Shown piece by piece: positions 7,064 to 44,858 of a stretch of 64,000 nucleotides of DNA (position 1 is its first letter; every line of letters begins with the position of its first letter). The notes under the pieces were generated by a model. That model had not been told where the DNA came from. It worked only from the letters and a program-made list of their open reading frames with translations, and did not search any database. Both the position numbers and the translations under genes were made by a program. The DNA is from Alphaproteobacteria bacterium (GTDB lineage: Bacteria > Pseudomonadota > Alphaproteobacteria > MPNO01 > UBA2964). The DNA lies in assembly GCA_049602055.1 (NCBI GenBank), contig JBMYRG010000008.1, positions 20,618-84,617 on the forward strand. The letters are read 5' to 3'.

Positions 7064-7984
7064 GTGTCATCCTTTGAACTTCGATCACACCTCTTACTCA
7101 TAACGGCATCAATCCTTCTGGTTATGACCTTGGTGGCCTGCCAGCCCGCCCCAACACCGTTTGCTCATACGCCAGGACAAGGTGATCCAATTATTTCCGA
7201 GCGCCCGGATATCGCCGGCGTTACCGTCAGGCCAATCAACGGCCTAACAAAACGACAATCCGATGCTCTCTCAAAGGCAATGGTCAACGCATTTATGGCG
7301 ATGGAAATTCCCGCAGCGACCACCGGCGAAAACCGCCGAAGCAGGTTCGTTGACGGTACTGCCAAAATCATCAGCTCGGCCAAGACCCAAATGGCGATTC
7401 AGATCGAATGGACGCTCACCGATTCGCTGGGACGAGCATTAGAGACACACAAAAGTCGTCACAGGATCAACCGAGAAAGCTGGGACCACCCGAATCCCAA
7501 ATCACTTTCTTCCTGGGCAAAACAACCTGCACAACAATTTTCTCGCCGAATTCTGGGGCCACGCCCCAATGAGAAACGCAGCCAATCTGTCTCGTTACCC
7601 CGCTTACACGTATGGCCAGTCGACGGCATAGATGGCTCCAGGGCGACGACATTGCAGCGCGCCATGGAACGAGCCCTGAGTCAGCGAAAATTTGTGGTTT
7701 TAAAAGGACTTGAAGGTGCCGCACTCATCATTGCCGGTTCCGTCTCATTGGGGACTGCCCGCGGGGGAAGCCAGCCGATTGAGATCAACTGGTCTGTTCT
7801 CGACACGAAAGGGAAACAGGTCGGTAAGCTCGATCAGAAAAACTCAGTCGCTGTTTCCACCATAAAAAATCGTTGGCAAAACCTGTCCTCGATCATTACC
7901 CAAAACGCTGCCGGCGGCGTCAGTGAGATTGTCGACCGCCTGCCGGTAGAAAGTTTTCCACAGGACAAAAAAACCCGTCGCTAA
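7064..7984 (+). CDS. Hypothetical lipoprotein with two related halves
   Basis: Hydrophobic leader ending LVAC (lipobox-like); long ORF in frame between pgeF and prs. Confidence 0.7.
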   Translation: MSSFELRSHLLLITASILLVMTLVACQPAPTPFAHTPGQGDPIISERPDIAGVTVRPINGLTKRQSDALSKAMVNAFMAMEIPAATTGENRRSRFVDGTAKIISSAKTQMAIQIEWTLTDSLGRALETHKSRHRINRESWDHPNPKSLSSWAKQPAQQFSRRILGPRPNEKRSQSVSLPRLHVWPVDGIDGSRATTLQRAMERALSQRKFVVLKGLEGAALIIAGSVSLGTARGGSQPIEINWSVLDTKGKQVGKLDQKNSVAVSTIKNRWQNLSSIITQNAAGGVSEIVDRLPVESFPQDKKTRR

Positions 7985-11586: not shown

Positions 11587-12156
11587 TCAGATAAAGCGGG
11601 CTGACTTTATCATCCGTTCTGCTTCTTCCGAATATTTGTCGTAATAGTACACAGCGGTACCGTAAGCCGCGATCAAGCTCAGACGGTTTTTATATACAGC
11701 ACCAACAAATAGACATTTAAAGTCCAACCCGTCTTTTGTCGTATAGGTGCAGTCAAATCTAAACCCGTCCTCGCTGCCAATCTTGTATGGCCTCAGGTTG
11801 ATAATTTTAAAATTACCTAAATTGCCGAGAGCCATAGAGGATTTAATTGCTTCAGCAATCTCTACAGCTGTCATACTGGATTTAAATTTGGGGGCTTTTT
11901 GTCCTTGAGGGAAAGAAAAGATCGATTCACCGTCTTCCAGGCCACCAAGCACCGCAATTCGTTGCAAACGAGCGCCATCAACCGTCAAAACGTCCCATTT
12001 CGTATAGCCGGAGATCAACGACCACTCATGCGTCGTTTCGACAATCAGGCGGTCCTGTAATGTTATAGGACCGGATTTAACGAGGGTAATAGAAGGACAG
12101 CCAGTTAGCAGGCCACAAAGGGCTGCGCAGCCCAATATTCTGAGTAATTGTTTCAT
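11587..12156 (-). CDS. Hypothetical lipoprotein (possible PsbP/DcrB-like fold)
   Basis: Lipobox LTGC; last gene of a tightly spaced three-gene minus-strand operon. Fold guess comes only from the beta-rich C-terminus and terminal helix. Confidence 0.65.
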   Translation of the reverse strand: MKQLLRILGCAALCGLLTGCPSITLVKSGPITLQDRLIVETTHEWSLISGYTKWDVLTVDGARLQRIAVLGGLEDGESIFSFPQGQKAPKFKSSMTAVEIAEAIKSSMALGNLGNFKIINLRPYKIGSEDGFRFDCTYTTKDGLDFKCLFVGAVYKNRLSLIAAYGTAVYYYDKYSEEAERMIKSARFI

Positions 12157-12158
12157 TT

Positions 12159-13409
12159 TTATCCGATCCTATTGACAATCGCTTCGATCATTAAGCGATC
12201 CTGTGATGATGGTGCTCGCCTTAGGTATTCACGAAACGCTTTCCGAGCCTCGTCAAATTTCTTCAACTTACGATAAATCAGCCCCATATATTTATGGACC
12301 TCTGGCGGATAATCCTTTTCCGCGATTGCCTTCGTATAAAACTCCAGGGCAGCAGTGAATTTTTTATCGGAAGTGTCTTCTTCATCCCCAGCTTCTTCAT
12401 CTTTAATCCGATGCAGTTCACCCCGAAAAAAGTTTAGTTCGCCCTTCGGAAGTCCGATATCAGCCAGCATTTCCATTAACTTATGCGCCCGGGCATACCG
12501 CCTTAATTGGGTCTCATCCCGTAAAAAGGTTGTGCGTCGCGGCGCCATAATTTTTTGATAGGCTAGCTGGTTGGTAACGCCTTCTCGTCCCTGTTCCTTG
12601 ATGACCTCATCGGCCAGCCTGGCAAGTGTATCTGCGCGTTCCTGGCTACTCGGGTGGCTGGCGAAAAACACAACTCTGTTCTTATTTTCGGGGTCAGCAT
12701 CTCGTTCTTTAATGAGCTGCTGCCAAATTCTGGATGCCTCTCGTGGGTCATATCCGGCCTTCGCCATAAGCTCTAACCCCAACCTGTCTGCTTCTCTTTC
12801 ATGATCCTGGCTATAGGCGGAGATGGACGCCATGGCTATGAGGGTTGCAACGTCTCCAAGGCCCGGAATGCCGACAGCGGCCAAACCAAACTGGACGATA
12901 ACCAGTGCGTTTGCCGTATCCTGCGTATTGCGAAAGCGCTGCATTCCATGGCGGCGTAAATAATGCGCAATCTCATGTCCGATGACGGCAGCCAATTGAG
13001 CTTCATTATGGGCTCTTAACAGCAGCCCCGTATTCACGATCATCATACCATTGGGATACATGGACGCGTTAAATAGTGGCAAATGCTGAATATAGACGCG
13101 AATGTCCTTGCAATAATCTCCAGCTAATTTACAGGCGATTTTGTAAACATATTGCTGGAGCTCTTTATCCCGAAACGTCGTTCCTGATGATTTGATCTGT
13201 TTCTCAATTTTCTCCACCGACATCCAGAGACCACCTTCAAGTGTATCCAAAGGCGGGCGTTCTCCTGGCGTCAGGTTTTGGACCGTTGATGCAGGAATTT
13301 GATCGGTTGATGGGTTTTCAATATCACCATCGCCAGAGGTCGTAACGCAGCCGCTCAGGAGACAGACGACAACGATGGGGACCGAAAATATGTCGAATAG
13401 ACGCGTCAT
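12159..13409 (-). CDS. M48-family zinc metalloprotease lipoprotein with C-terminal TPR-like repeats
   Basis: Lipobox LSGC; NASMYPNG; HEIAH (HExxH); YSQDHEREAD; FFASHP; TPR-like helices at C-terminus. Confidence 0.9.
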   Translation of the reverse strand: MTRLFDIFSVPIVVVCLLSGCVTTSGDGDIENPSTDQIPASTVQNLTPGERPPLDTLEGGLWMSVEKIEKQIKSSGTTFRDKELQQYVYKIACKLAGDYCKDIRVYIQHLPLFNASMYPNGMMIVNTGLLLRAHNEAQLAAVIGHEIAHYLRRHGMQRFRNTQDTANALVIVQFGLAAVGIPGLGDVATLIAMASISAYSQDHEREADRLGLELMAKAGYDPREASRIWQQLIKERDADPENKNRVVFFASHPSSQERADTLARLADEVIKEQGREGVTNQLAYQKIMAPRRTTFLRDETQLRRYARAHKLMEMLADIGLPKGELNFFRGELHRIKDEEAGDEEDTSDKKFTAALEFYTKAIAEKDYPPEVHKYMGLIYRKLKKFDEARKAFREYLRRAPSSQDRLMIEAIVNRIG

Positions 13410-13411
13410 TT

Positions 13412-14185
13412 TTAGCTAGGAAGTTCTTTCATCAATACTTTGACAGTTTCTTGAGCTTCTTCAGGCGTTCTCAAATCGCCAGTGCCCCGTGTTACGCGAT
13501 TGAACCAAACAACTTTCCCGGTACGGAGATCGACAAGGGAAGCAAACCCCAACTGTTGCCCGCCAGGTAACCCCACACCAAACACGAGCGCGGCTACGAA
13601 GATCGTCGCCGCACGCCCGGCAGACGCATAGCTATCCCGCATATATACGAATAAGGCGTAATCAGCCTTGGTTGTTTCTCTTAACTTTTTCACACCCGGA
13701 CCTAAAGTCCACGTTAGCTTACCCTCTTTGGTGGGAAGGGGCTGGATGGACTGAAACAACATTTCGGTCCCAACCGCGCTATGAAGTTTAATCAGCTGTG
13801 TATGAAGCCGTGCGTTATCGCTACCGGGCGACGGCTCCGCATAGGGTAGCAACTCACTTTTCTTGCCAGAGAAGACGTCTTTTATCCCTGTTTCGAGATT
13901 TATTTTTGCCTTCTCAGTCCAAGCAGCTTTGGGTTCAAGTATTCCACTGGCACCTTGCTCACTAAGTTCTACATCAATTGGCATAAACAAGACGGAAAGC
14001 GGTTTGGGGCCACGCTCAAACTTTTCAATGTTCCTGATATGCGTCGTAACGCAACCAGAAAGAACTAACATCGAACAGCAAAGAAACGCTATGCCCCGTA
14101 CACTCCGTGATTGAATTCTTATCCCCAGCTCTCCCAACTTTTGGTAAACTCTAAATCCGTAAAAAGAGAATGTCGATAGAGACAA
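13412..14185 (-). CDS. Hypothetical lipoprotein (start uncertain; possibly 14122)
   Basis: Lipobox LSGC; alpha/beta pattern; first gene of the M48 operon. Confidence 0.7.
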   Translation of the reverse strand: MSLSTFSFYGFRVYQKLGELGIRIQSRSVRGIAFLCCSMLVLSGCVTTHIRNIEKFERGPKPLSVLFMPIDVELSEQGASGILEPKAAWTEKAKINLETGIKDVFSGKKSELLPYAEPSPGSDNARLHTQLIKLHSAVGTEMLFQSIQPLPTKEGKLTWTLGPGVKKLRETTKADYALFVYMRDSYASAGRAATIFVAALVFGVGLPGGQQLGFASLVDLRTGKVVWFNRVTRGTGDLRTPEEAQETVKVLMKELPS

Positions 14186-14307
14186 GCACGAAAAAAGAGA
14201 GCTTGGTATTCTTCACCACGCATTGCACATACTGTCATCAACGTTTAAAAAAGCCGGTCTATAGTTTTGACCGCGAATCTGTCGCGGTGCCTTTCAGGGA
14301 GAGAAAA

Positions 14308-14979
14308 ATGGGATCTATGACCGAACTAACCACAGCCGATGGCCATACGCTTGGCGCCTACAAGGCAGAACCGTCAGGCTCTGCCAAAGGTGGCGTTGTC
14401 GTCATTCAGGAAATTTTTGGAGTCAATCAGCACATCAAGAACCTCGTCGATGAATTCGCCAAGAATGGATATGTCGCTATCGCACCAGCTTTGTTTGACC
14501 GTAAGGAAAAAGGCCTTGAGCTCGGCTATGGTCAGGATGACTTTGGCAAGGGCCGTGACACACGCGGCAGTCTCGATGATGACGGAATTCAGAACGACGT
14601 TCAGGCTGCCATCAACGACGTTTCAAGCGCCGGTAAAGTCGGCATTGTTGGCTATTGCTTCGGTGGCTATGTCAGCTGGCTTGCGGCTTGCAAATGCGAT
14701 GGCCTGGCAGCGGCATCAACCTTCTATGGCGGTGGCATCCATGCCAAGCGCGATGACACACCGAAAGTGCCCGTGATCTTTAACTTTGGTGACAAAGACG
14801 GCGGTATCCCGCTGAACCAGGTTGCTGAGATCAAGGAAGCCCACCCCGACATCCCCTGCTACGTCTATGACGACGCGGGACACGGCTTCTGCTGTGACGA
14901 CCGGGAAAGCTACAATCAGGGTGCATGCGAACGCGCTCACAAGCGGACACTTGACCATTTCGGCCAACATGTCGGCTGA
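14308..14979 (+). CDS. Dienelactone hydrolase family protein
   Basis: VVVIQEIFGVN, GYCFGG nucleophile elbow, D and HGF triad residues; GGGAGAG RBS before ATG 14308. Confidence 0.93.
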   Translation: MGSMTELTTADGHTLGAYKAEPSGSAKGGVVVIQEIFGVNQHIKNLVDEFAKNGYVAIAPALFDRKEKGLELGYGQDDFGKGRDTRGSLDDDGIQNDVQAAINDVSSAGKVGIVGYCFGGYVSWLAACKCDGLAAASTFYGGGIHAKRDDTPKVPVIFNFGDKDGGIPLNQVAEIKEAHPDIPCYVYDDAGHGFCCDDRESYNQGACERAHKRTLDHFGQHVG

Positions 14980-15003
14980 TTGCTGTTAGGTAATTTAGAG
15001 ACG

Positions 15004-15034
15004 AAGCCCCGGCCCGCAAGGTCCGGGGCTTTTT
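15004..15034. terminator. Probable bidirectional intrinsic terminator
   Basis: AAGCCCCGG-N10-CCGGGGCTTTTT between convergent genes. Confidence 0.8.
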
Positions 15035-15035
15035 C

Positions 15036-17081
15036 CTATCTTAACGAGGCCGCGATATTGCCACCATCCACCGTGACAATCGCCGCCGTCGTCTTTTCCG
15101 CCAGTGCTAAATCAAGGAATGCCTTGGCAACGTCCTCGGCCAAGACCTCACGGCCCAGCAAATTACCGCCCATATATTCGGCTTCCGAAACACCACGTGC
15201 CTGCGAGCGGACCGCTATCATCTCATCATCGAGCAAACCCGTGCGAATACGATCAGCATTAACAGCGTTAGATCGAATGCCATCGGAACCGTAATCCAAC
15301 GCATATTGTTTCATGAGGAACAAGGTCGCTGCTTTCGGTAGCCCGTACGGTCCAAAATCAGGACCCGGGTTAATCGCCTGCTTGGATGTATTGAACAGCA
15401 AGCATCCACCAGTGCCTTGCGCCTTCATAATGCCGACAGCGGCCTTGGCAACCGATTGATGCGCAAAGAAATTTAACTCGAAGCTCTCGCGCAAAATCTC
15501 ATCATCGACCTCACCAATTTTCCCCTGCCATGCTGCGCCGGCGTTGGATACCAACAGATCAAGGCCACCGAAACGCTCACAGATTGTATCGAAGGCTTGC
15601 GATACAGAAACTGTATCAGTGACATCACAGGCGAGACCTAACCCACCAATTGCGTTAGCTACCTCCTGAGCGGCAACCTCGTCACGATCGAGGACAACCA
15701 CAACGGCACCAGCTGCAGCAAAGGCTCGTGCCGTCGCCGCGCCAATGCCAGACCCGCCACCAGTTATGGCCGCGATTTGTCGTTGCAGAGGTTTTTCCGC
15801 CGATTTCCCGAGTTTGGCCTGTTCGAGTGACCAGTATTCAATATCGAAAATATCCGCCTCCGGAATGACCTCATAGCTACCCATCGCCTCAACATCAGTG
15901 ATCACATCGATATTTGTTTCTGCCAGATCGGCCGCAACTGATGCGGCACCAGCGCTATTGCCGAGGCCAAACAACCCGACACCCGGCACCAGAATAACCC
16001 GCGGCATTGGGTCAAGTTCGGTCTTTGGCGTCGCCTGAGTTTTATTATTGCGTGCAAAATAGGCGTGATACTCAGCAATGTAACTCTCGACGGCTTCGCG
16101 GGCCCCCGCAGCAAATTCTTCAAGCTTGCCCGCCTCTGGCACGGGCGTAACGAGCGGGTTTGGTTTCGTCCGAATAACATGATCCGGGGTCACAGTTCCC
16201 TGCTGACTAAACCGTCCTAAATTAGCATCAGCAACATAGTTAATGATCGCCTCATTGGTCCGAAAATCCATAACCAGGCGCTGCGCATTAGTACCGGTTT
16301 CCATCGCACATAGCCCCCGAAGAATAGGGGCAATTTGCGCCACTGAAGCCATCTGAGCTGGCATCTCAATGCTCGAAAAACTGCGAGATCGCCGTTTTTC
16401 GATCTCAGATTCCGCAAGCGAGACCATCTCGATCATGCGTTCATAGGATTCCTGAGCCGTATCTCCAAAACTGAAAATGCCGTGTTTGAGGAGGATCAAC
16501 CCCTCAACAACAGCGTCCTGTTCAAATACCTCTTTGGCTTTCTTTGCCAGAGCAAAGCCCGGCATAATATAGGGAACGTACCCCATGCGATTACCAAATA
16601 CCTCTCGGCAAATATCGTCACCACCTTCCTGATCTGTCAGTGCCAGGACGGCATTGGCATGTGTATGATCAACAAATTTGTGCGGCAAAAAGGCATGCAG
16701 CAGGGTCTCAACTGACGGATTCGGTGCAGATGAATCCAATAGATTGATCCGCTGGGCATTGACCATGCCCTCATCGGACAATGTAGAAAGGGCCGCCAGC
16801 TGCCGGATAGCCTCCAACCGAACCGCCGGCAGTCCGGGAGGTTCTATATCACCCAGGTCCCAGCCAGATCCTTTGACGCAAAGAACATCGGTGTCTTGCC
16901 CTAGCATATCCGGCATCGTCGTTTTCACGGAGGTATTGCCGCCACCATGGAGTACCAGCCTGGGTTCGCCGCCGAGCAGGCGCGAAGTGTAAACCCGCAG
17001 GGCAACGTCCTGATTTACTTCATTGCTCGTAAATTGAGCGATATAGCTTTCTGCATCTTTATCGGACCAGAGATTTTTCAT
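15036..17081 (-). CDS. Bifunctional class II aldolase / short-chain dehydrogenase (RhaEW-like architecture)
   Basis: N-terminal: HGGGNTSVK, KGSG, PSVETLLH, DHTHA, KHG (Zn aldolase motifs). C-terminal: TGGGSGIG, LDRD, NAG, S...YGLPK (intact SDR motifs). Confidence 0.9.
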   Translation of the reverse strand: MKNLWSDKDAESYIAQFTSNEVNQDVALRVYTSRLLGGEPRLVLHGGGNTSVKTTMPDMLGQDTDVLCVKGSGWDLGDIEPPGLPAVRLEAIRQLAALSTLSDEGMVNAQRINLLDSSAPNPSVETLLHAFLPHKFVDHTHANAVLALTDQEGGDDICREVFGNRMGYVPYIMPGFALAKKAKEVFEQDAVVEGLILLKHGIFSFGDTAQESYERMIEMVSLAESEIEKRRSRSFSSIEMPAQMASVAQIAPILRGLCAMETGTNAQRLVMDFRTNEAIINYVADANLGRFSQQGTVTPDHVIRTKPNPLVTPVPEAGKLEEFAAGAREAVESYIAEYHAYFARNNKTQATPKTELDPMPRVILVPGVGLFGLGNSAGAASVAADLAETNIDVITDVEAMGSYEVIPEADIFDIEYWSLEQAKLGKSAEKPLQRQIAAITGGGSGIGAATARAFAAAGAVVVVLDRDEVAAQEVANAIGGLGLACDVTDTVSVSQAFDTICERFGGLDLLVSNAGAAWQGKIGEVDDEILRESFELNFFAHQSVAKAAVGIMKAQGTGGCLLFNTSKQAINPGPDFGPYGLPKAATLFLMKQYALDYGSDGIRSNAVNADRIRTGLLDDEMIAVRSQARGVSEAEYMGGNLLGREVLAEDVAKAFLDLALAEKTTAAIVTVDGGNIAASLR

Positions 17082-17089
17082 CGTACTTC

Positions 17090-18181
17090 CTATCTATTCT
17101 CCGGATAGAGGCCCAACAACCCTTCTGTTGTCGCCTCGCAAATACCGCGTTCCGTAATCAAACGGGTGACCAGCCGCGCCGGTGTTACATCAAACCCGTA
17201 ATTCGCAGCTGCACTCCCCGGCGGCGTAACCGAAACGGTTTCTATCGTTCCCTGCGCTGTTCTGCCAGTGATGCTCGTAACCTCCGCAGGATCACGTTCT
17301 TCAATCGGAATATCTCGACCGTTGCTAATCGTCCAGTCTATCGTTGGCCCTGGCAGCCCAACATAGAACGGCACGTCATTGTCTCGCGCCGCCAGGGCTT
17401 TCAGATAAGTACCGATTTTATTGGCTACATCTCCAGAAGCTGTCGTCCGGTCGGTTCCAGTGATCAAAAGATCGATATCACCCTGTTGCATGACATGCCC
17501 ACCCGCATTATCGACGATAACTGTATGCGGCACGCCGTGCTGACCCAGCTCCCAGGCGGTAAGTCCTGCGCCCTGATTGCGGGGTCGGGTTTCATCGACC
17601 CAGACATGCACCGGTATCTCTTGTTCATGAGCGACATAGATGGGCGCCGTCGCAGTCCCCCAATCGACTGTTGCCAGCCAACCGGCATTACAATGCGTCA
17701 AAATATTGACCGGACGGCTCCGATCTATTTTATCCCACGCATCACGAACGAGTTGCACGCCATGGTCACCAATGGAGCGACACATCGCGACATCTTCATC
17801 ACAAATTTCTGCTGCCCGACGGTAGGCAGCTTCTATCCGGTCACCCGCCGCGAGTGGTTCAAGGGTCGCTTTCATATCGTCGAGTGCCCAGCGTAAATTC
17901 ACCGCCGTGGGGCGGGTCTGAAGAAGAAGGTTATAGGCAGACTGCAATGCCCCGTCAGTGGCGTCTGCGCGAACCGCAAGGCATATGCCATATGCCGCTG
18001 TCGCACCGATCAGTGGCGCGCCACGGACCTGCATGGAGCGTATTGCATGCGCCGCCTCCTCAACTGAATTCAGAGCGCGCGTTATAAACTCATGAGGTAG
18101 CCGGGTTTGATCAATGATCTCGACAGTTTCGCCATTATCGGCAAGCCAAATTGTCCGGAATGGCACACCATCGACGTTCAT
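17090..18181 (-). CDS. mtnA: S-methyl-5-thioribose-1-phosphate isomerase
   Basis: [60 protein letters not shown]. Confidence 0.96.
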
Positions 18182-19065
18182 TGGCGTAACACCCGCCCGG
18201 CAATGACGTCGAGCTTCTCGGTCATTTTGGGATCACGGGCCTCAGGAGCCGTTATAATCGCGACATCCAGGGCGTTGTGGCAGCCGGCCTCGCAAAGGGT
18301 CGACCGCCCACCGATCAACGGAGCCAAATTAACCACCAATTGTTTCGCAGCGGCGGCGTTCTCGATCAACACTTTGATGACCGTTTCTACAGTGACGTCG
18401 TCATGATCCTGATGCCAGCAATCATAATCTGTAACCATTGCGACGGTCGCGTAACATATCTCTGCTTCGCGAGCGAGCTTGGCTTCCGGCATGTTGGTCA
18501 TGCCAATCACGTCACAACCCCAACTCCGATAGAGCTTGCTTTCCGCCCGGGTAGAAAACTGTGGCCCCTCCATCACCAGATAGGTGCCATCGCGTACCGT
18601 CTCATTCGACAGCCCCCCAGCAGCTCGCTCGATCAGGTTACCAAGACGTTGACAGGCGGGATCAGCCATCGATACATGCGCCACCAGCCCATCGCCAAAA
18701 AAACTTTTTTCGCGGGCAAATGTCCGGTCAATAAACTGATCAACTATAACAAATGTCCCTGGGGGCAATTCTTCCTTCAAAGACCCGACGGCACTGAGCG
18801 AAATAATCTCTGTGCAACCAGCCCGTTTCATAGCTTCGATATTAGCTCGAAAATTTAGCCTGCTTGGGGGCACTTTATGTCCCCGGCCATGGCGTGGCAA
18901 AAACACGACCTGCTGGCCATCAAGTTCGCCAAACAAGAGATCATCCGACGGTGCGCCGAAGGACGTTTCGATCGTTTCCCAACGCGTATTAGAAAGTCCA
19001 TCAATGTTGTAGAGACCGCTACCACCAATAACGCCCAATACAGGGGGGCTCGCTGTATCTGTCAT
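18178..19065 (-). CDS. mtnP: S-methyl-5'-thioadenosine phosphorylase
   Basis: [57 protein letters not shown]. Confidence 0.96.
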
Positions 19066-19083
19066 AAACTTTCAACGTTCCAT

Positions 19084-19116
19084 AAAAAAACCGGCGATGA
19101 AATTTCACCGCCGGTT
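19084..19116 (-). terminator. Intrinsic terminator downstream of petABC
   Basis: Stem AACCGGCG.TGAA/TTCA.CGCCGGTT followed by a U-tract on the minus strand. Confidence 0.8.
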
Positions 19117-19163
19117 CATTTATCATAGTAGAGGCATCAGCACGAGAGCCAACGCCTGCCTAT

Positions 19164-19925
19164 TTAATGGAGGTCTGACCAAACCTTACGTTTCACGCCA
19201 TAAAGCAAACCTGTCAGAATAAGCAGGAACAGGATCACTTTGACCCCCATCCGCTTGCGCCACTCAAGCTCTGGCTCAGCGGCCCAGGCGAGGAACGTCG
19301 TTACATCGTGCGCCATTTGAGAAACCGTCGCTTTGGTCTTGTCTGCGTATTCAACTGCACCTTCGCTAAGCGGCGGTGCCATTGCGATTTGATTACCCGC
19401 GAAATAGAGATTGTAGGACATACCCTCCGCGAGCTTCTTCTCTTTTGGTGGCTCTTTGTAGCCTGAGAGGAGCGCGTGTACGTAATCCGCACCACCTACT
19501 CTTGCTTTGGTCATAAGCGTCAAATCCGGTGGATAGGCACCGTTATTGCCTGCGCGCGCAGCCTCCTCATTTGGAAAAGGTTTAACAAACCGGTCGCTCG
19601 GTCGAGCAGGACGTTGAAACATCTCGCCTTCATCATTCGGGCCGTCAGTGACCTCCTTGGCAGCCGCAATCTTTTTCACGTGATCTTCGGTGAAGCCGAT
19701 ATCCATCAGATTCCGATAGGCCAACAAGCGTACCGAATGGCAAGCGGCACAAACCTCGTTATAGACTTGAAAGCCACGCTGTAGGGCTCCACGATCAAAC
19801 GTGCCAAAGAGACCCGAGAATGACCATTCCTGCTTGGGTGGTTTCACAGCATCACCTGCCGCCATGGTACCGCTGGACGAGAGAACAGCAACAGCCGCGA
19901 CAACGCTAATCAAAGATTTGCGCAT
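19164..19925 (-). CDS. petC: Cytochrome c1 (bc1 complex)
   Basis: Signal peptide, QRGFQVYNEVCAACH, YPPDL, Met ligand in IAMAPPL, C-terminal TM helix. Confidence 0.98.
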   Translation of the reverse strand: MRKSLISVVAAVAVLSSSGTMAAGDAVKPPKQEWSFSGLFGTFDRGALQRGFQVYNEVCAACHSVRLLAYRNLMDIGFTEDHVKKIAAAKEVTDGPNDEGEMFQRPARPSDRFVKPFPNEEAARAGNNGAYPPDLTLMTKARVGGADYVHALLSGYKEPPKEKKLAEGMSYNLYFAGNQIAMAPPLSEGAVEYADKTKATVSQMAHDVTTFLAWAAEPELEWRKRMGVKVILFLLILTGLLYGVKRKVWSDLH

Positions 19926-21226
19926 CAGGCCTTCTCCATCGGCTTCGCACTGGCGGCAGAGGATAAACCCCCACCCCCTTTCAGTACTGGCTCACTAATA
20001 CTTGTTGGCAAAGGTTTGGTTTTTTCGAAGAAACCCAGCAACGGAAGGATGACGATAAAGTGCAGGAAGTAATAAGCCGTCGCCGCCTGGGAGATATATG
20101 TCCAGGGTTCCTCTGCTGGCTTCGCGCCGCAAATTCCGAGAATGATACAATCGATAACCAGCAACCAGAAGAATTGCTTATATAAAGGCCGGAAACGGGC
20201 ACTCCTAACTGGTGAGTGATCGAGCCATGGCAGGATAAACAGCACCATGATTGACGCAAACATCGCCAACACGCCAGCCAACTTGGCTGACATCAACCAT
20301 GAAATTGGGAGATAAATGAGGGCATCTGCAGTGAACGACCGCAAAATTGCGTAGAACGGGAGGAAATACCATTCAGGCACGATATGTGGCGGCGTCACCA
20401 GCGGGTTGGCCTCGATGTAATTATCAGGGTGTCCAAGGAAGTTCGGTGCGAAGAACACAAACCCGAAGAACAGAACCAAAAAAACCCCTAAACCGAACAA
20501 GTCCTTGACCGTATAATAAGGGTGGAACGGGATCGTATCCTGCGGTGACTTTGTATCGATGCCAATCGGATTGTTTGAGCCGTGCTGATGTAGCGCCACA
20601 ATATGAAGCACAATGATCCCCACCAAAACAAATGGTAATAAATAATGCAGGCTAAAGAACCGGTTCAACGTTGGGTTATCAACCGAGAAACCGCCCCAAA
20701 GCAGTGTAACTATAGAGTCACCAACAACGGGGATTGCCGAAAACAGATTGGTAATAACCGTCGCGCCCCAGAAACTCATTTGCCCCCAGGGAAGCACATA
20801 CCCAAGGAAGGCTGTCGCCATCATGATCAACAGGATAACAACGCCCAAAATCCACAAAATCTCGCGGGGCGACTTATAGGATCCAAAATACATTCCTCTG
20901 AAGATATGGATGAATACCACGATAAAGAAGGCCGACGCACCGTTCATATGAACATAGCGGATTAACCAGCCATAATTGACGTCGCGCATAATACGCTCGA
21001 TTGAATCAAAGGCGTAAGCGGTATGCGCCGTATAGTGCATCGCCAGCACAATACCGGTGACAATCATGATCACCAGAATGATTCCGGCAAGGGAACCGAA
21101 GTTCCAAAAGTAATTCAAATTCTTGGGCGTGGGGTACTCATGAAGCTCATGCTCCATGAATGAAAAAACCGGCAGCCGGTAGTCGATCCAGGCTACGATT
21201 GGGTTTTTAAACTTTGAATCGCTCAT
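19925..21226 (-). CDS. petB: Cytochrome b (bc1 complex)
   Basis: [35 protein letters not shown] motif. Confidence 0.99.
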
Positions 21227-21237
21227 CCAGTTTTCTC

Positions 21238-21801
21238 CTAACCGATTTTAACGAGCTTGTCCGACAAGAACTTGTATGCCGGGACCGGAAGATTTTTGGG
21301 TGCGGGTCCTTTGCGGATCCGCCCTGATGTATCGTAATGAGAGCCATGGCACGGGCAGAACCAGCCGCCAAACTCGCCTTTTAATTCGCCTTGCTTGGTG
21401 CCTGACGGAATGCAACCCAGGTGAGTGCAGACGCCGACCACAATCAACCATTCTGGTTTCTGCGCCCGCTTTGCATCGGTTTCAGGGTCTGGAAGGTTGG
21501 CAAGGTCGACGCCGCCCGCTGCTTCTATCTGTGCCTTGGTCCGACGCACGATAAAGACTGGCTTACCCTGCCATTTAACCAAAATTCTTTGGCCGGGCTT
21601 GATGGGTTCCAGATTGACCTCAGTCGTGGATGCCGCCAGCGTATCCGCCGCCGGGTTCATCTGATCAATAAGTGGCCACGCCGCAGCAGCAGCACCAAAG
21701 GCACCAAAGGCCCCGGTAGCCAGCATCAGAAAATCACGTCTGGTTTCGCCTTCTTCGGCGCCGTGAGTGCCATCTCCGGCCGTATCAGCAGAACTCGCCA
21801 T
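21238..21801 (-). CDS. petA: Rieske iron-sulfur subunit (bc1 complex)
   Basis: Tat motif RRDFL, CTHLGC and CPCHGS boxes. Start moved to ATG 21801. Confidence 0.98.
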
Positions 21802-21982
21802 TATGTCCCTCTTGGTTATATCCGCGCACTGGTCGCGGCTCTGCAAACGTACCAGATATCATTAACGTACCAGTAGATTCAAACACTGCGGCCTTACGCC
21901 GCAGCAAGCCTGGAACGCTAGCAATACGTGCCCTTGTAACGGGGCACGGGTATAATCGACAACAACCTTAATGCAAAGGTCA

Positions 21983-21998
21983 TTAACCGATCATTAAC
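21983..21998 (+). promoter_or_regulatory. CtrA-type binding box TTAA-N7-TTAAC
   Basis: TTAAccgatcaTTAAC is an exact match to the alphaproteobacterial CtrA consensus, in the petA/trmL divergent intergenic region. Confidence 0.45.
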
Positions 21999-21999
21999 T

Positions 22000-22470
22000 A
22001 TGCGAATAGCGCTTTACCAACCTGATATCCCTCAAAATACCGGCACCATCCTGAGGATGGCTGCCTGCATGAATGTCGGTGTGGACATTATCGAACCTTG
22101 TGGCTTTGTTCTGGACGACAGGCGGCTGCGGCGATCTGGCATGGACTATCTCGATCAGGTCGATTTAACGCGCCATATCTCATGGGATCATTTTTACAAA
22201 AACTGTTCCGAAAGGGGTGATCGGCTTATTTTGCTGACCACGTCAGGAGACGTTCCCTATTGCGACTTTGCATTCCAACCCAATGACAGGTTGCTGTTGG
22301 GCAGAGAAAGTGCAGGTGCCCCTCCTGAAGTGCACGAGGCGGCGCTTGCCAGGCTACGAATCCCTATGGCAAACGGAACGAGATCGCTGAATATTGCCAT
22401 GGCTAGTGCAATGGTGTTGGGTGAAGCCTTAAGACAGACAAATCGATTTGTCACAGGAATTTCAGAATGA
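22000..22470 (+). CDS. trmL: tRNA (cytidine(34)-2'-O)-methyltransferase (SPOUT)
   Basis: [27 protein letters not shown]...RSLN. Confidence 0.95.
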
Positions 22471-23333
22471 CCCGGACACTCGACGAAAAAAAGGCTGTCG
22501 CGACCGAATGGTTTGCCGAACTTCGAGACCTAATCTGTGCGGAGTTTGAGGCCATAGAACAAGAGGGCGGGGCCGGAAACTCAGAAGCACCGCCCGGAAA
22601 GTTCCAGCGCAAAACATGGGATCGGCAGGATCATACCGGCGCAGATGGTGGTGGCGGGACGATGTCAGTCATGCACGGACGCGTATTTGAAAAAGTCGGG
22701 GTCAATATTTCAGCGGTCCATGGCGAATTCTCCCCAGAGTTTCGCAAAGAAATTCCCGGCGCAGAGGAGAACCCCGAGTTTTGGGCGGCCGGCATTTCTT
22801 TAGTCGCCCATATGAGTTCGCCACTGGTTCCCGCCGTTCATATGAACACGCGTTTTATTTCGACCTCAAAATCATGGTTTGGCGGCGGAACGGATTTAAC
22901 ACCGATGCTCGCCGACGAAGCCGCCGCCAGTGAATTCCATACAGCGCTAAAGGAAGTATGTGACGCCCATGATGGTGCCTATTATGAAAAATTCAAAAAA
23001 TGGTGTGATGAGTATTTTTATCTTCCGCATCGTGAGGAACCTCGCGGCATCGGCGGAATCTTTTACGATTATGTTGATTCAGGAGATTGGGAAGCAGACT
23101 TTGCCTTCACTCAAAACGTCGGGCGTATATTCCTAGAAACCTATCCTTCGATTGTAAGGACCCGCAAAGATCAAGACTGGACAGCAGACCAGCGAGAACA
23201 GCAGCTGGTAAAACGCGGACGCTACGTGGAATTTAATCTCCTGCATGACCGCGGCACAAAATTTGGACTTAAAACCGGAGGCAATGTCGAAGCAATTTTG
23301 ATGTCTATGCCTCCTGTCGCTAAATGGCCGTGA
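22467..23333 (+). CDS. hemF: Oxygen-dependent coproporphyrinogen III oxidase
   Basis: [50 protein letters not shown]. Confidence 0.97.
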
Positions 23334-26621: not shown

Positions 26622-27653
26622 ATGGCTGAAACAGAATCCCTAACTCAATCCACCAGTCCTGGAGAAGAACCCCCTGCCCGTCTCGTCGCAGAAATCGATT
26701 CACTGGGCCAACGTATAGCCCTCGTTCGCGACCGGATTGGCCGGATAATTTTTGGCCAGAACCAAGTGATCGACGAAACTCTTATCACGCTGCTCGCTGG
26801 CGGTCACGTTTTGTTAATCGGCTTTCCCGGCCTCGGTAAAACGCGATTAGTCGAAACGTTAGGAACCGTCCTCGGGCTCGATGACAAAAGGGTTCAATTC
26901 ACGCCTGATTTAATGCCTGCGGATATTCTTGGTTCCGAAATTCTTGATGAAGGAGAAGACGGTACAAGACGGTCTTTTCGCTTTATCGAAGGACCAGTTT
27001 TCTGCCAGTTGGTAATGGCTGATGAAATCAACCGTGCCAGCCCAAGAACCCAATCAGCCCTGTTACAAGCGATGCAGGAGAAAACCGTTTCAGTTGCAGG
27101 TCAGAATCACGCTCTACCGAACCCATTTCATGTCCTTGCCACCCAGAATCCGCTGGAGCAGGAAGGTACGTACCCGTTGCCTGAAGCACAACTTGATCGG
27201 TTTCTCATGCAGGTCGATGTAAGCTACCCATCAGAAGAAGCCGAGCGTGAAATACTTTTGGCTACAACGGGATCAGAAGCTGCAACCCCGGAGCAGGTGC
27301 TTACGGCAGATGATCTGATTTCAGCACAACGGCTGGTGCGTCAAATTCCAGTCGGCGATAGTGTTGTACAATCAATCCTCAACCTCGTGCGATCAGCGCG
27401 TCCTACCGAAAGCGCGTTACCCGAGATTCGGGATCATGTTGCATGGGGCCCCGGCCCACGTGCTAGCCAGGCTCTTATGCTAGCGTGCCGTGCACGCGCT
27501 TTATTGGATGGTCGCTACGCGCCATCCATTGATGACGTCGTCGCATTGTCGAAACCGGTGCTGCGACATCGCATGGCACTCAGCTTCGCGGCCCGGGCCG
27601 ATGGCATAACCATTGATGAGGTAATTGAACGGCTTTGCGCTCCTTTGGCCTAA
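26622..27653 (+). CDS. moxR: MoxR-family AAA+ ATPase
   Basis: Walker A GFPGLGKT, RVQFTPDLMPAD, Walker B ADEINRASPRTQSALL, ATQNPLEQEGTYPLPEAQLDRF. Confidence 0.95.
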   Translation: MAETESLTQSTSPGEEPPARLVAEIDSLGQRIALVRDRIGRIIFGQNQVIDETLITLLAGGHVLLIGFPGLGKTRLVETLGTVLGLDDKRVQFTPDLMPADILGSEILDEGEDGTRRSFRFIEGPVFCQLVMADEINRASPRTQSALLQAMQEKTVSVAGQNHALPNPFHVLATQNPLEQEGTYPLPEAQLDRFLMQVDVSYPSEEAEREILLATTGSEAATPEQVLTADDLISAQRLVRQIPVGDSVVQSILNLVRSARPTESALPEIRDHVAWGPGPRASQALMLACRARALLDGRYAPSIDDVVALSKPVLRHRMALSFAARADGITIDEVIERLCAPLA

Positions 27654-28558
27654 AACTCGTGGGCCTCAGCAATCGGGAAGCTGAACGTCCAGCGTCGATC
27701 AGACAACGAGCAGAGGAAACAGCTGCTCGTTTGCCTCCTTTGTTGGTCGCTGCCGAACGCATTGCTGCTACCGTTGCGCAAGGAGTCCACGGCCGTCGCC
27801 GTGTTGGCCAGGGAGAATCGTTTTGGCAATTTCGGCGTTACCAACAGGGCGACAACGTCCAAAGGATTGACTGGCGACAGTCAGCAAAGCGCGAACACCT
27901 CTATATTCGGGAAAATGAATGGGAAGCGGCTCAGAGCGTCTGGGTGTGGCTAGATCGTTCGACATCCATGAAATATCACTCCGACGACGGATTACCAGAC
28001 AAGGCTGATCGTGCTGCGGTTCTCATGCTGGCGCTGGCCTCCCTTCTCATCCGGGGCGGAGAACGCATCACCCTCCTTGGGTCCGGAATCCCACCGTCGA
28101 ATGGCCGCGCCGTTATGGACAGGCTCGTCGCCTCTATTTCCACCGCCTTTGACCGGGAACAAAGTGCCCCGCCGCTGGAGCCTCTCCCGCGTTACGCCCG
28201 GGTCGTTATGATATCTGACTTCCTGACGCCGCCCGCAGAAATCGAAGAGACGTTACGCGGCTTTGCGTCTCTAGGCGTGCGCGGTCATCTTTTGCAAATT
28301 TTCGATCCCGCCGAACGAAGCCTGCCGTTTTCCGGTCGCGTGCGCTTCGAAGGTTTGGAAGACGAGGGGGCGGCGCTGATCGGTCGTGTTGAAGCCGTGA
28401 GAACAGAGTATGTGCAGCTCATGGAGAAACACCGGCGCGCAATCGAAGACATTGCCCGCAATCTGGGATGGAGTTGTCTCGCGCACGCCACTGATCAGCC
28501 ACCGCAAACAGCGTTGCTCGCACTTTACAATGCTCTAACAGAAACGCCGGGAGCATAA
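27635..28558 (+). CDS. DUF58 (vWA-like) protein
   Basis: GVHGRRRVGQGESFWQFRRY, IDWRQSAK, DRSTSM MIDAS-like; follows moxR. Confidence 0.9.
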   Translation: MRSFGLKLVGLSNREAERPASIRQRAEETAARLPPLLVAAERIAATVAQGVHGRRRVGQGESFWQFRRYQQGDNVQRIDWRQSAKREHLYIRENEWEAAQSVWVWLDRSTSMKYHSDDGLPDKADRAAVLMLALASLLIRGGERITLLGSGIPPSNGRAVMDRLVASISTAFDREQSAPPLEPLPRYARVVMISDFLTPPAEIEETLRGFASLGVRGHLLQIFDPAERSLPFSGRVRFEGLEDEGAALIGRVEAVRTEYVQLMEKHRRAIEDIARNLGWSCLAHATDQPPQTALLALYNALTETPGA

Positions 28559-28561
28559 GCA

Positions 28562-31363
28562 ATGCTTGACCTGGGACCTCTCGTATTTACCGCCCCCTGG
28601 TTATTGACGGCACTCGCCGCGTTGCCAGTTCTATGGTGGTTACTGCGGGTGACACCGCCCGCTCCATTGGTTCGTGCCTTCCCGCCCTTGCGCTTTTTAC
28701 TCGCGCTACAGCCACAAGAAGAAACACCAGCCAGAACCCCGCTTTGGCTGATTCTGTTGCGCATGCTGATCGCGGCTTTGATCATCCTTGGTCTTGCCCA
28801 TCCGGTATGGAATCAGGGTAAGCAGCTTTATGGAAGTGGACCCCTGATTCTGGTTGTGGACGATGGCTGGGCCGCAGCACCAGCATGGCAAAAACGATTG
28901 GATACAATTGAAAATCTTGTCGACCAGGCAGATCGCGAGGGGCGCGCTGTACGGGTTCTGATGACGGCGAAGCAACCTCGTTCTGGGTCCAGCTATATTA
29001 GCGACCTGATGCGCCCCGCAGAGGCACGTCAGTTACTCCGTCGAATCAAACCCAAACCATGGCCAACAGATCGACGGTCAGCGTTAAATGCCCTCAAAAA
29101 CCTAACAGTGAGCGGTTCAGCACATGTCGCCTGGTTATCAGATGGCTTAAACGATGCAGGCGCTGCATCTCTCATGGATCGATTACGCGAACTTGGTGCC
29201 TTGCGGATTTACCGCGAACCTTCTGTCGCACTAGCAAAGACCCTAACCCAGCCACGGACAGTGACAGGCGGATTGGCCTTTCCGGTCCAACGGGTGACTG
29301 GCCCCCTCAGCAGCTCTGAGGTTCAGGTAAGGCTATTTGATGAAGATGGTCGCCTTTTGGGCCGTGAGAAAGCCTTGTTTGATCAAGAAAAATCGACTGC
29401 TGAAGCCCGTTTTAAATTGCCTCCCGATATTCGTAACCGGGCTGCGAGGGCCGAGATAGAAGGGGAAGACAGTGCCGGTGCTGTGTTTCTCCTGGATGAA
29501 CGGTGGCGACGTCGCCCTGTCGGCATTGCTGTTGGCGGGCTCACCGAAGGATCGGTGCCCCTTTTAAGCGACGATTACTATTTGAAACGCGCTCTCGATC
29601 CTTTTAGCGATGTTAGAACTGGTACGATCAGCGATCTAACAAAACTAAAGTTGGCTATGATCGTATTGGCTGACATCGGGAAACTCAGCAAACCTCAGTC
29701 AGACTCATTGCTTTCCTGGATAAATAAAGGTGGGGTTCTCGTTCGCTTTGCAGGGCCTCGCATGGCCCAGGGCGTTGACCAACTGGTACCGGTACAACTA
29801 CGCGGCGGCGGACGAGCGCTAGGCGGCACGATGTCCTGGACGACACCGGCCAAGCTCATGCCCTTCGAAGATAAAAGCCCCTTTGCCGGTCTCCCAATCC
29901 CTACCGACATCCGAATAAATCGCCAGGTTCTGGCGCAACCCACGCTGGATTTAAACGGCAAGACCTGGGCTCGATTGACTGACGGGACACCCCTCGTCAC
30001 CGCGGAAAGGAATGGAAATGGCTGGCTCGTCCTGGTCCATACCACTGCGAATACCGAGTGGTCCAACCTGCCGCTTTCGGGCCTTTTCGTCGGCATGATG
30101 CAACGTATTGCCGCCCTAAGCCTTGGCGTTAGCGGTGACGGCGGCGCGACCAGCTTCCCTCCACTACAGATAATGGATGGGTTTGGTGTCTTAGGGGAGC
30201 CATCCTCGGCATCCGTTGCCATCCCTGGGAAATCGTTTTCCAAAGCCATTGCGGGACCCAAGACACCGCCGGGGTATTACGGCAAAGGGGAAACACGTCG
30301 CGCGCTTAATTTGGCGTCGTCCGTTCGTAGCCTGTCGCCGTTAATTAATATTCCTGTCGGTGTCGAAACCGTCGATTATACGATCACAACGGGAATAGAT
30401 GCTAAACCGTGGCTGCTGCTCGTCGCACTCATACTCCTGATCGCTGATTTGGTCATAAGCTACATATTGCGCGGCTTGGGTGTCGGCATTGTTTCCACGT
30501 CCACGCCAAAGAGCAGCGCGATCGGCCGCATTGCTGGAATTACCGTTCTGCTTGTCGCAAGTCTTACCTTTTTTGCGTCGCCAACTTTTGCTCAGACGAC
30601 AATACCGTCAAAACCCACATTCTCCCTGGACCCAGAGGAACGATTTGCCCTGCACGCAACATCGGAAACGCGGCTTGCCTATGTGCTCACAAATGATGCC
30701 ACCATCGATTCTGTAAGCCGTGCTGGGTTAGTAGGTCTTACAGACATTTTGCGACGCCGAACTGCCGTCGAAGCGGGGACACCAATTGGCGTGGATATCG
30801 AACGGGACGAGTTGGCGTTTTTCCCGTTACTTTACTGGCCGGTCTCCCTTAGGCAACGTCCCTTGTCCGACAACGCTATCGAAAAACTTAACGCATACCT
30901 GAGAACCGGCGGTACCGTTTTATTTGATACGCGAGAACAATCAAAGCTCACCTTTGACCCCTTTGGGAGTGGTGGTGCCGAGGCCACCAAGCTTCGTTCC
31001 ATGTTGCGCGAGCTTGATATCCCGGCATTGATCCCCGTGCCGACAGACCACGTCATCAACAAGGCGTTCTATTTGCTAAAGGGTTATCCCGGTCGCTGGC
31101 GCGGCGGGACGGTTTGGGTCGAGCGGCGCGGCGGCCGTCACAATGACGGTGTTTCCTCGGTATTAATTGGTAGCAATGATTGGGCCGGTGCTTGGGCAGT
31201 CGACCAACAGGGTTCGCCAATGTTTCCAGTCTCGCCTGATGGTGAACGTCAGCGAGAATTTGCCTACCGGTTTGGCGTTAACTGGGTGATGTATGCCCTG
31301 ACCGGCAACTACAAAACTGATCAGGTTCATGTGCCGTCGATTATTGAACGTCTTGGGCAGTAG
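28562..31363 (+). CDS. BatA N-terminal anchor + vWA-like + DUF4159 membrane protein
   Basis: N-terminal LPVLWWLLR.TPP..FP.LRFL (BatA), VDDGWAA; C-terminal FFPLLYWP, GGTVLFD, SNDWAGAWA, YALTGNYKTDQVH. Confidence 0.85.
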   Translation: MLDLGPLVFTAPWLLTALAALPVLWWLLRVTPPAPLVRAFPPLRFLLALQPQEETPARTPLWLILLRMLIAALIILGLAHPVWNQGKQLYGSGPLILVVDDGWAAAPAWQKRLDTIENLVDQADREGRAVRVLMTAKQPRSGSSYISDLMRPAEARQLLRRIKPKPWPTDRRSALNALKNLTVSGSAHVAWLSDGLNDAGAASLMDRLRELGALRIYREPSVALAKTLTQPRTVTGGLAFPVQRVTGPLSSSEVQVRLFDEDGRLLGREKALFDQEKSTAEARFKLPPDIRNRAARAEIEGEDSAGAVFLLDERWRRRPVGIAVGGLTEGSVPLLSDDYYLKRALDPFSDVRTGTISDLTKLKLAMIVLADIGKLSKPQSDSLLSWINKGGVLVRFAGPRMAQGVDQLVPVQLRGGGRALGGTMSWTTPAKLMPFEDKSPFAGLPIPTDIRINRQVLAQPTLDLNGKTWARLTDGTPLVTAERNGNGWLVLVHTTANTEWSNLPLSGLFVGMMQRIAALSLGVSGDGGATSFPPLQIMDGFGVLGEPSSASVAIPGKSFSKAIAGPKTPPGYYGKGETRRALNLASSVRSLSPLINIPVGVETVDYTITTGIDAKPWLLLVALILLIADLVISYILRGLGVGIVSTSTPKSSAIGRIAGITVLLVASLTFFASPTFAQTTIPSKPTFSLDPEERFALHATSETRLAYVLTNDATIDSVSRAGLVGLTDILRRRTAVEAGTPIGVDIERDELAFFPLLYWPVSLRQRPLSDNAIEKLNAYLRTGGTVLFDTREQSKLTFDPFGSGGAEATKLRSMLRELDIPALIPVPTDHVINKAFYLLKGYPGRWRGGTVWVERRGGRHNDGVSSVLIGSNDWAGAWAVDQQGSPMFPVSPDGERQREFAYRFGVNWVMYALTGNYKTDQVHVPSIIERLGQ

Positions 31364-31375
31364 GAAACGAATGGC

Positions 31376-44764: not shown

Positions 44765-44858
44765 CTCAATTCCTTTTTGTCTCTCGCTATAATTGCGTAA
44801 CATTGAATTGCGGCGGATTATCGTGCAAACAGCGCATTCAGACAACGGAGTGAAATTT

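Follow-up and report, generated by a model that had tools for sequence, protein, structure and literature searches.

The 64-kb window analysed here, a stretch of DNA from a marine alphaproteobacterium, carries on its minus strand three adjoining genes that are the subject of this study: mtnP, mtnA and a gene for a protein in which a class II aldolase is fused to a short-chain dehydrogenase/reductase (SDR). Table 1 lists these features; all coordinates refer to the whole window, with position 1 at its first letter. A preliminary description of the locus had presented the three genes as one tight operon that ends in a 681-residue fusion, and its coordinates were exact: the ATG of mtnA and the TGA of mtnP overlap in a 4-nt ATGA, and 8 nt separate the mtnA stop codon from the ATG of the fusion gene, which has the Shine–Dalgarno sequence AGGAAG just before it. 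Given the ATGA overlap, the short gap with its Shine–Dalgarno sequence and the hairpins on both flanks, the three genes look like a single transcription unit. MtnP scores 503 bits against the NF006492 equivalog model (cut-off 437), and MtnA scores 411 bits against TIGR00512 (cut-off 279).

Table 1. The mtnP-mtnA-fusion unit, the parts of the fusion protein and the flanking hairpins.
Feature	Position	Strand	Remarks
mtnP, S-methyl-5'-thioadenosine phosphorylase, 295 aa	18178-19065	minus	first gene of the unit; NF006492 and PF01048
mtnA, 5-methylthioribose-1-phosphate isomerase, 363 aa	17090-18181	minus	TIGR00512 and PF01008
Bifunctional aldolase/SDR fusion, 681 aa	15036-17081	minus	last gene of the unit; NF006192 clade
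RhaE-type class II aldolase domain, aa 1-230	16392-17081	minus	PDB 3m4r match; H139/H141/H200, E125
Conserved middle region, aa 231-430	15792-16391	minus	strands and two long helices, ~200 aa
Classical NAD-type SDR domain, aa 431-681 and stop codon	15036-15791	minus	GxxxGxG, D465, NAG, S566, Y579, K583
Terminator-like hairpin, 13-bp stem and T-run	19088-19117	minus	follows petC; 22 nt from the start codon of mtnP
GC-rich hairpin	15005-15030	none	between the convergent fusion and dienelactone hydrolase genes; read from the sequence

The GC-rich hairpin is likely to be a bidirectional terminator that closes the unit, and the hairpin on the other flank divides petABC from the mtn genes. The latter lies so close to the start of mtnP that any mtn promoter must overlap or precede it, which leaves two options: either mtnP-mtnA-fusion needs read-through from petABC, or the hairpin is an attenuator. 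No riboswitch or other RNA family matched positions 13000-23000 (Rfam, E up to 1), and a sigma-70 promoter scan gave fewer matches than in shuffled controls. The trace of expression is weak, a single 249-nt metatranscriptome contig that matches exactly inside the fusion gene.

The unit holds three features of clusters of the dihydroxyacetone phosphate (DHAP) shunt, namely a 5'-methylthioadenosine (MTA) phosphorylase gene, an adjoining isomerase gene and a class II aldolase in one operon. Pfam scans of all open reading frames (ORFs) of at least 150 aa in the window detected no mtnB, mtnC, mtnD, mtnW or mtnX, no acireductone dioxygenase or enolase-phosphatase, and no rhamnose genes (rhaA, rhaB, rhaI, rhaM or rhaS), in line with the preliminary description, which had found neither mtnB/C/D nor rhamnose genes here. 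There was no second Aldolase_II domain (PF00596) either, so that the fusion is the sole class II aldolase near mtnA and mtnP.

Within the fusion, PF00596 covers residues 30-225 (E 2.9e-22) and adh_short residues 435-617 (E 1e-35), adh_short and adh_short_C2 together spanning residues 435-674. The top NCBIfam match is NF006192, ‘bifunctional aldolase/short-chain dehydrogenase’ (PRK08324.1-6; 1065.4 bits against a cut-off of 639), which aligns over the full length (residues 1-681 to model positions 1-685) and whose family name specifies no substrate. The motifs of both domains, described earlier as intact, proved to be fully or almost fully conserved in three clades that range from 100 to 30% identity. 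In the aldolase domain these are N49, G71-S72-G73, S123 and H139/H141/H200, with E125 nearly invariant (it is Asp in the RhaEW-type sequence); the three histidines and E125 correspond to the metal ligands, and N49, S72-G73 and S123 to the phosphate site, so that the three metal His, the catalytic acid and the phosphate-binding Gly/Ser/Asn motifs of the class II aldolase superfamily are all present. The SDR domain likewise has the TGxxxGxG Rossmann motif, the NAG motif and the Ser-Tyr-Lys catalytic residues of a classical SDR: G441xxxG445xG447, D465, S512-N513-A514-G515 and Y579xxxK583 are kept across the three clades, and S566 in at least 90%. D465, the acidic residue after beta2, indicates a putative preference for NAD.

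AlphaFold (AF2), given a 36-sequence alignment from the three clades, returned a model with a predicted local distance difference test score (pLDDT) of 78.5 and a predicted template modelling (TM) score of 0.78; a model made from 18 close homologues (pLDDT 48.5) was discarded. In Foldseek searches, the C-terminal part of the model matched classical SDR structures (TM-score ~0.85) and the N-terminal part matched the class II aldolase domain of 3m4r; with the full-length model, the match list was saturated by SDR structures.

Among solved structures, 3m4r is the closest to the aldolase domain. A phmmer search of the PDB with residues 1-425 found this entry only, to which the entire aldolase domain is 41% identical (E 1e-52) and with which it shares the PSVET...HxH...KHG motifs. 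That entry is a structural-genomics structure from the archaeon Thermoplasma acidophilum, without an assigned function, for which the N-terminal class II aldolase domain alone was solved. A profile of the aldolase domain found 3m4r at E 4e-68, followed at E 0.008-0.2 by 1pvt, 2irp, FucA (2opi) and RhaD, and it aligned the fusion motifs with the ET...HTH...HG of 2irp, 1pvt and 3m4r. The PDB presumably holds DrdA as well as FucA and RhaD; FucA and RhaD were the two that we saw among the profile matches. Because the single-sequence search gives only 3m4r and the others appear weakly by profile, the domain sits within the superfamily, yet far from FucA, DrdA, Ald2 and MtnB. With FucA and RhaD reached only at E 0.018-0.2, orthology to the FucA-like Ald2/DrdA aldolases (EC 4.1.2.62) is not borne out; to judge from these comparisons, the domain is of the RhaE type and a probable non-orthologous replacement for the Ald2/DrdA/FucA type. 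We also noted, on pSymB of Sinorhizobium meliloti 1021 (L084:7863-9251), a 462-aa homologue of fusion residues 1-424 (44% identity) that has no SDR domain and adjoins a sugar ABC transporter gene. Since the aldolase domain and the middle region stay together in this protein, the middle region belongs with the aldolase.

The characterised proteins closest in design are the RhaEW fusions of rhamnose catabolism (B. subtilis YuxG, Chloroflexus Caur_2283; TIGR02632), which have the same three parts (aldolase II, middle region and SDR) in ~680-700 residues and in which the metal-site histidines and SDR catalytic residues are likewise kept. RhaEW joins an L-rhamnulose-1-phosphate aldolase to a lactaldehyde dehydrogenase, as the preliminary description had said, and the latter is NAD+-dependent (PMC3870299). 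With NAD+, it converts L-rhamnulose-1-phosphate to DHAP and L-lactate (Rodionova et al., PMC3870299); Ca_RhaEW was inactive with NADH, and no DHAP and no lactate were seen without NAD+. RhaEW fusions are always encoded within a rha locus (PMC3870299), unlike the present fusion, whose context is mtn. The predicted activity of the present fusion would also resemble that of RhaEW, in that a deoxy-ketose-1-phosphate would be cleaved and the aldehyde converted on one polypeptide. The two differ in sequence (~30% identity, and the Asp in RhaEW at the position of E125) and in expected chemistry: the substrate of the present fusion would have the opposite C4 configuration, and its aldehyde product would lack the 2-hydroxyl.

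A pattern scan limited to a single genome for each species brought up at least 593 relatives of the fusion. For the analysis of context we took the best 80 of these (59-68% identity, mostly from Alphaproteobacteria) with 10-kb flanks, called their neighbouring genes with a caller aware of G+C content at third codon positions, and clustered them. The preliminary description had staked its reading on homologues being enriched next to mtnA and mtnP, and this is what we see: mtnA and/or mtnP lie within 10 kb of the fusion in 48 of the 80 loci, always on the same strand, upstream of the fusion in all loci but one, and immediately upstream in 37. In 27 loci the gap between the end of mtnA and the fusion downstream of it is under 200 nt, typically 6-35 nt, and in 10 further loci, where mtnA is missing, mtnP abuts the fusion directly. 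Of the 58 loci whose flanks reach 3 kb or more on each side, 34 are linked; by chance, we would expect this in roughly 0.5% of cases for a pair of unrelated single-copy genes in a ~4-Mb genome. In 16-17 of the linked loci, and in none of the unlinked ones, apt (adenine phosphoribosyltransferase), which salvages the adenine that MtnP releases, lies between mtnP and mtnA. Seven Rhizomicrobium-type loci (L010, L030, L033, L038, L041, L047 and others, by eye) have, in addition, a glutathione S-transferase gene between apt and mtnA.

Neighbour clustering over the 80 loci yielded no recurrent rhamnose genes, no recurrent mtnC, mtnD, mtnW or mtnX and, for other sugar pathways, no recurrent kinase, isomerase or transporter gene. 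A FucA probe, which serves as a lead only, hit a FucA-like ORF in one of the 80 loci, an unlinked one, and nothing in the window. Because linked loci occur on every deep branch of a neighbour-joining tree of the fusions, with unlinked groups such as Reyranella nested inside, mtn linkage is ancestral for the clade. The unlinked fusions of Reyranella and Enhydrobacter (L004, L006, L011, L024-L026, L029, L034, L035 and L046) have neighbours of their own: a xanthine-guanine phosphoribosyltransferase-like gene (gpt), again a purine-salvage gene, precedes the fusion, often with a zinc-type alcohol dehydrogenase/quinone oxidoreductase gene after gpt, and genes for a TauD-family dioxygenase, an aldo-keto reductase and an amidohydrolase lie 3' of the fusion (names by eye).

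More distant relatives are found in sugar loci. A ~30%-identical fusion on a Rhizobium plasmid (L081), annotated as a bifunctional rhamnulose-1-phosphate aldolase/SDR, has rhaI, rhaM, rhaS, a sugar kinase gene and a DeoR regulator gene as neighbours. A ~50%-identical clade of Rhizobiaceae (L083, L087 and L089; for example Agrobacterium tumefaciens CP072308 and R. leguminosarum pRL4b2) has the same architecture and all the catalytic residues; its cluster comprises an FAD oxidase (DAO), a sugar ABC transporter, an SDR, the fusion, a glycerol-3-phosphate-dehydrogenase-like gene and rpiB, with no mtn genes near these loci, and has the look of a sugar or polyol pathway not characterised so far. Genomic context tracks the fusion clade, the pattern to be expected were each clade to act on a ketose-1-phosphate of its own.

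The chemistry of S-adenosylmethionine (SAM) unavoidably yields MTA and 5'-deoxyadenosine as by-products, both inhibitory, and the DHAP shunt is among the commonest bacterial routes for removing them. In the shunt, MtnP (or MtnN plus MtnK), MtnA and the class II aldolase Ald2/DrdA yield DHAP plus 2-methylthioacetaldehyde or acetaldehyde (PMC13474568, PMC5893883); it is known from Rhodospirillum rubrum, Rhodopseudomonas palustris, extraintestinal pathogenic Escherichia coli (ExPEC) and Bacillus thuringiensis (DrdK/I/A). The enzyme that processes the aldehyde is still called unknown in a 2026 review (PMC13474568; also PMC5893883 and PMC6302742). The literature thus upholds the preliminary description both in taking the MtnP-MtnA-Ald2 route as established and in regarding the aldehyde step as lacking an assigned enzyme. 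Full-text searches returned no link between the fusion family and MTA or 5'-deoxyadenosine, though the supplements of North et al. 2017/2020 may mention such fusions.

Based on these observations, we think that the operon probably specifies a modified DHAP shunt, with cleavage of 5-methylthio- or 5-deoxy-ribulose-1-phosphate by a RhaE-type aldolase and conversion of the aldehyde by the SDR to which it is fused. By family assignment, MtnP would split 5'-methylthioadenosine or 5'-deoxyadenosine into adenine and 5-methylthio- or 5-deoxy-ribose-1-phosphate, and MtnA would isomerise the latter to the corresponding ribulose-1-phosphate. Gene context and homology to RhaE suggest that the metal-dependent aldolase domain would then cleave the C3-C4 bond, presumably at the H139/H141/H200 metal site and with E125 serving as acid/base, which would yield DHAP and either 2-(methylthio)acetaldehyde or acetaldehyde, and that the NAD-type SDR domain would convert the aldehyde at once, either by NAD+-dependent oxidation of its hydrate to 2-(methylthio)acetate or acetate, which we favour, or by reduction to 2-(methylthio)ethanol or ethanol. 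The fusion would thereby take the place of a stand-alone Ald2/DrdA and also supply the aldehyde-processing step. We infer both the substrate and any channelling from sequence and context. The variant would share with the known shunt the first two enzymes, the aldolase superfamily PF00596 and the predicted products, and presumably also the gene order of R. rubrum, in which we take the aldolase gene to be the last of the cluster. It differs in that the aldolase carries the ~200-aa middle region and the fused NAD-type SDR, whereas the aldehyde-processing enzyme of the known shunt is separate from the aldolase. The arrangement, in which a non-orthologous aldolase is apparently joined to the next enzyme of the pathway and which is widespread among genomes, is a supported prediction of comparative genomics, and the mtn linkage, the lack of recurrent rha genes in the 80 loci and the low identity to the rha-locus fusion all speak for the shunt reading that the preliminary description had put forward.

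As to the direction of the SDR step, we hold oxidation to be somewhat the likelier of the two, because RhaW, the only characterised relative, oxidises with NAD+ and is inactive with NADH, and because irreversible removal of the aldehyde would pull the unfavourable aldol cleavage forward; the equilibrium of such cleavages lies strongly on the side of condensation (Beaudoin et al., PMC6079011). The full proposal of an ‘oxidative DHAP shunt’ in the NF006192 clade, with RhaE-type cleavage, NAD+ oxidation and 2-(methylthio)acetate or acetate plus NADH as end products, is tentative, and we regard it as possible but on balance doubtful. The same aldolase step followed by an SDR that acts as an NADH reductase, which would make the fusion the missing ‘alcohol dehydrogenase’ of the classical shunt, falls within our confidence in the shunt assignment as a whole, and we consider it rather unlikely. 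It agrees with the alcohols being the in vivo products of the known shunt, E. coli included (PMC5893883, PMC10986504), and with the general chemistry of classical SDRs, most of which interconvert carbonyls and alcohols; the solved SDR structures nearest to the domain are those of oxidoreductases for alcohols or ketones. Opposed to it are the NAD+ requirement of Ca_RhaEW (PMC3870299), D465, which would make the domain NAD rather than NADP type and thus of a kind more usual in oxidative roles, and the presence among the closest PDB sequence matches of the aldehyde-oxidising SDR TsaC (8sy8), named 4-formylbenzenesulfonate dehydrogenase.

Several points weigh against our main reading of the operon. 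R. rubrum and R. palustris were observed to make the alcohol and not the acid (PMC5893883). The aldolase would have to change its C4 stereopreference relative to RhaE, from 3R,4S to 3R,4R. L-Rhamnulose-1-phosphate is 3R,4S, whereas the ribulose-1-phosphate derivatives are 3R,4R (D-erythro), as is fuculose-1-phosphate. No mtn gene lies within 10 kb in 32 of the 80 loci, the Reyranella group for example. Furthermore, petB is also present in 29 of the 48 linked loci, many of which have the dienelactone hydrolase gene (DLH) and ychF as well; the synteny is partly one inherited block, petABC-mtnP-(apt)-mtnA-fusion-DLH-ychF-pth, so that the raw linkage count overstates the number of independent events, and housekeeping neighbours without a functional link are equally syntenic. 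Both the window and a relative of 89% identity (L085) have this petABC-to-pth block. The alternative that these facts suggest, in which the fusion acts on some other ketose-1-phosphate unrelated to SAM by-products and its place beside mtn is merely inherited alphaproteobacterial gene order, gains further from the 30 unlinked loci that share no tested neighbour, from the unrelated nature of petABC, ychF and pth, and from the other sugar pathways that other clades of the family serve. We nevertheless judge it unlikely: gaps of 0-35 nt and stop/start overlaps are kept in many lineages, petB is absent from 19 linked loci, mtnP-mtnA-fusion stays collinear there and where petB/hemF lie on the other side or inverted, the unit is also found on the Tistrella mobilis megaplasmid pTM3, mtnP moves up against the fusion where mtnA is missing, and kinase, isomerase and transporter genes of other sugar pathways do not recur beside the clade.

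Two further readings keep the architecture and change the chemistry or the substrate. An MtnB-like dehydratase domain whose diketone product is reduced by the SDR would make the operon an unusual branch of canonical methionine salvage. MtnB has the same class II aldolase fold and metal site, and the profile aligns the E/H/H/H residues with those of the Aquifex class 2 aldolase aq_1979 (2irp), which we take to be MtnB-like, a label that does not come from the search output. There is also precedent for fusion, in that Tetrahymena MtnBD and Arabidopsis DEP1 join an aldolase-fold enzyme for 5-methylthioribulose-1-phosphate to the enzyme for a next step (PMC5893883, PMC6079011); unlike the present fusion, these are dehydratases that feed an oxygen-dependent pathway. 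With a true aldolase, RhaE, as the nearest characterised homologue (PMC3870299), and with mtnC/D/W/X absent from the window and not recurrent in the 80 loci, we consider a dehydratase very unlikely. Still less probable, and rejected here, is that the protein is simply RhaEW of rhamnose catabolism, as IMG/JGI implies by labelling close relatives ‘rhamnose utilization protein RhaD’: despite the shared architecture, its match to TIGR02632 (RhaD_aldol-ADH; 483.4 bits) stays under the cut-off of 567.75, whereas that of NF006192 is passed, it is only ~30% identical to the fusion from a rha locus, and rha genes are missing from its surroundings both in the window and, as recurrent neighbours, in the 80 loci.

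Elsewhere in the window, we noted several further features. Between ychF and the dienelactone hydrolase gene lie three genes on the minus strand (11587-14185), one of them for an M48 peptidase with tetratricopeptide repeats and two without a Pfam match, whose N-termini look lipoprotein-like by eye; they are missing at the same position in L085, where the dienelactone hydrolase gene directly abuts ychF, and represent a lineage-specific insertion. The dienelactone hydrolase ORF itself (14170-14979, plus strand) is 269 aa long, compared with 223 aa in relatives, and in this longer form it would overlap the 5' end of the divergent gene at 13412-14185; the true start is probably an internal Met near 14308. 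At 43970-45893, in a region otherwise rich in tripartite ATP-independent periplasmic (TRAP) and ABC transporters, a gene for a 366-aa MetE-like protein that consists of the catalytic domain of cobalamin-independent methionine synthase (Meth_synt_2) alone is divergently overlapped by a glutathione S-transferase gene. Positions 26622-33442 encode a MoxR AAA ATPase, a DUF58 protein, a 933-aa BatA/DUF4159 protein and a 688-aa protein without a Pfam match, a cluster that resembles an aerotolerance (Bat) operon. Finally, a 306-aa ORF at 7064-7984 (plus strand), between a polyphenol-oxidoreductase-like gene and prs, has no Pfam match at E up to 0.001, and L085 has at this position a 234-aa gene that is likewise without a Pfam match.

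With relatives in at least 593 species-level genomes, and with the window's own sequence recurring in many seawater and estuary metagenomes, the clade is a concrete candidate for the aldehyde-processing step of the DHAP shunt and, if our reading is true, would provide the shunt with a second, non-orthologous aldolase. Methylthioethanol is a precursor of methanethiol and ethylene. If the direction is oxidative, the methylthio group would end as methylthioacetate rather than methylthioethanol, and SAM metabolism in many Alphaproteobacteria of sea and soil would have a new organosulfur product; the ‘rhamnose utilisation’ annotation would be corrected for the genes of at least several hundred species, and the fusion would offer a clean example of an enzyme that pulls an unfavourable aldol cleavage forward by means of its fused partner.

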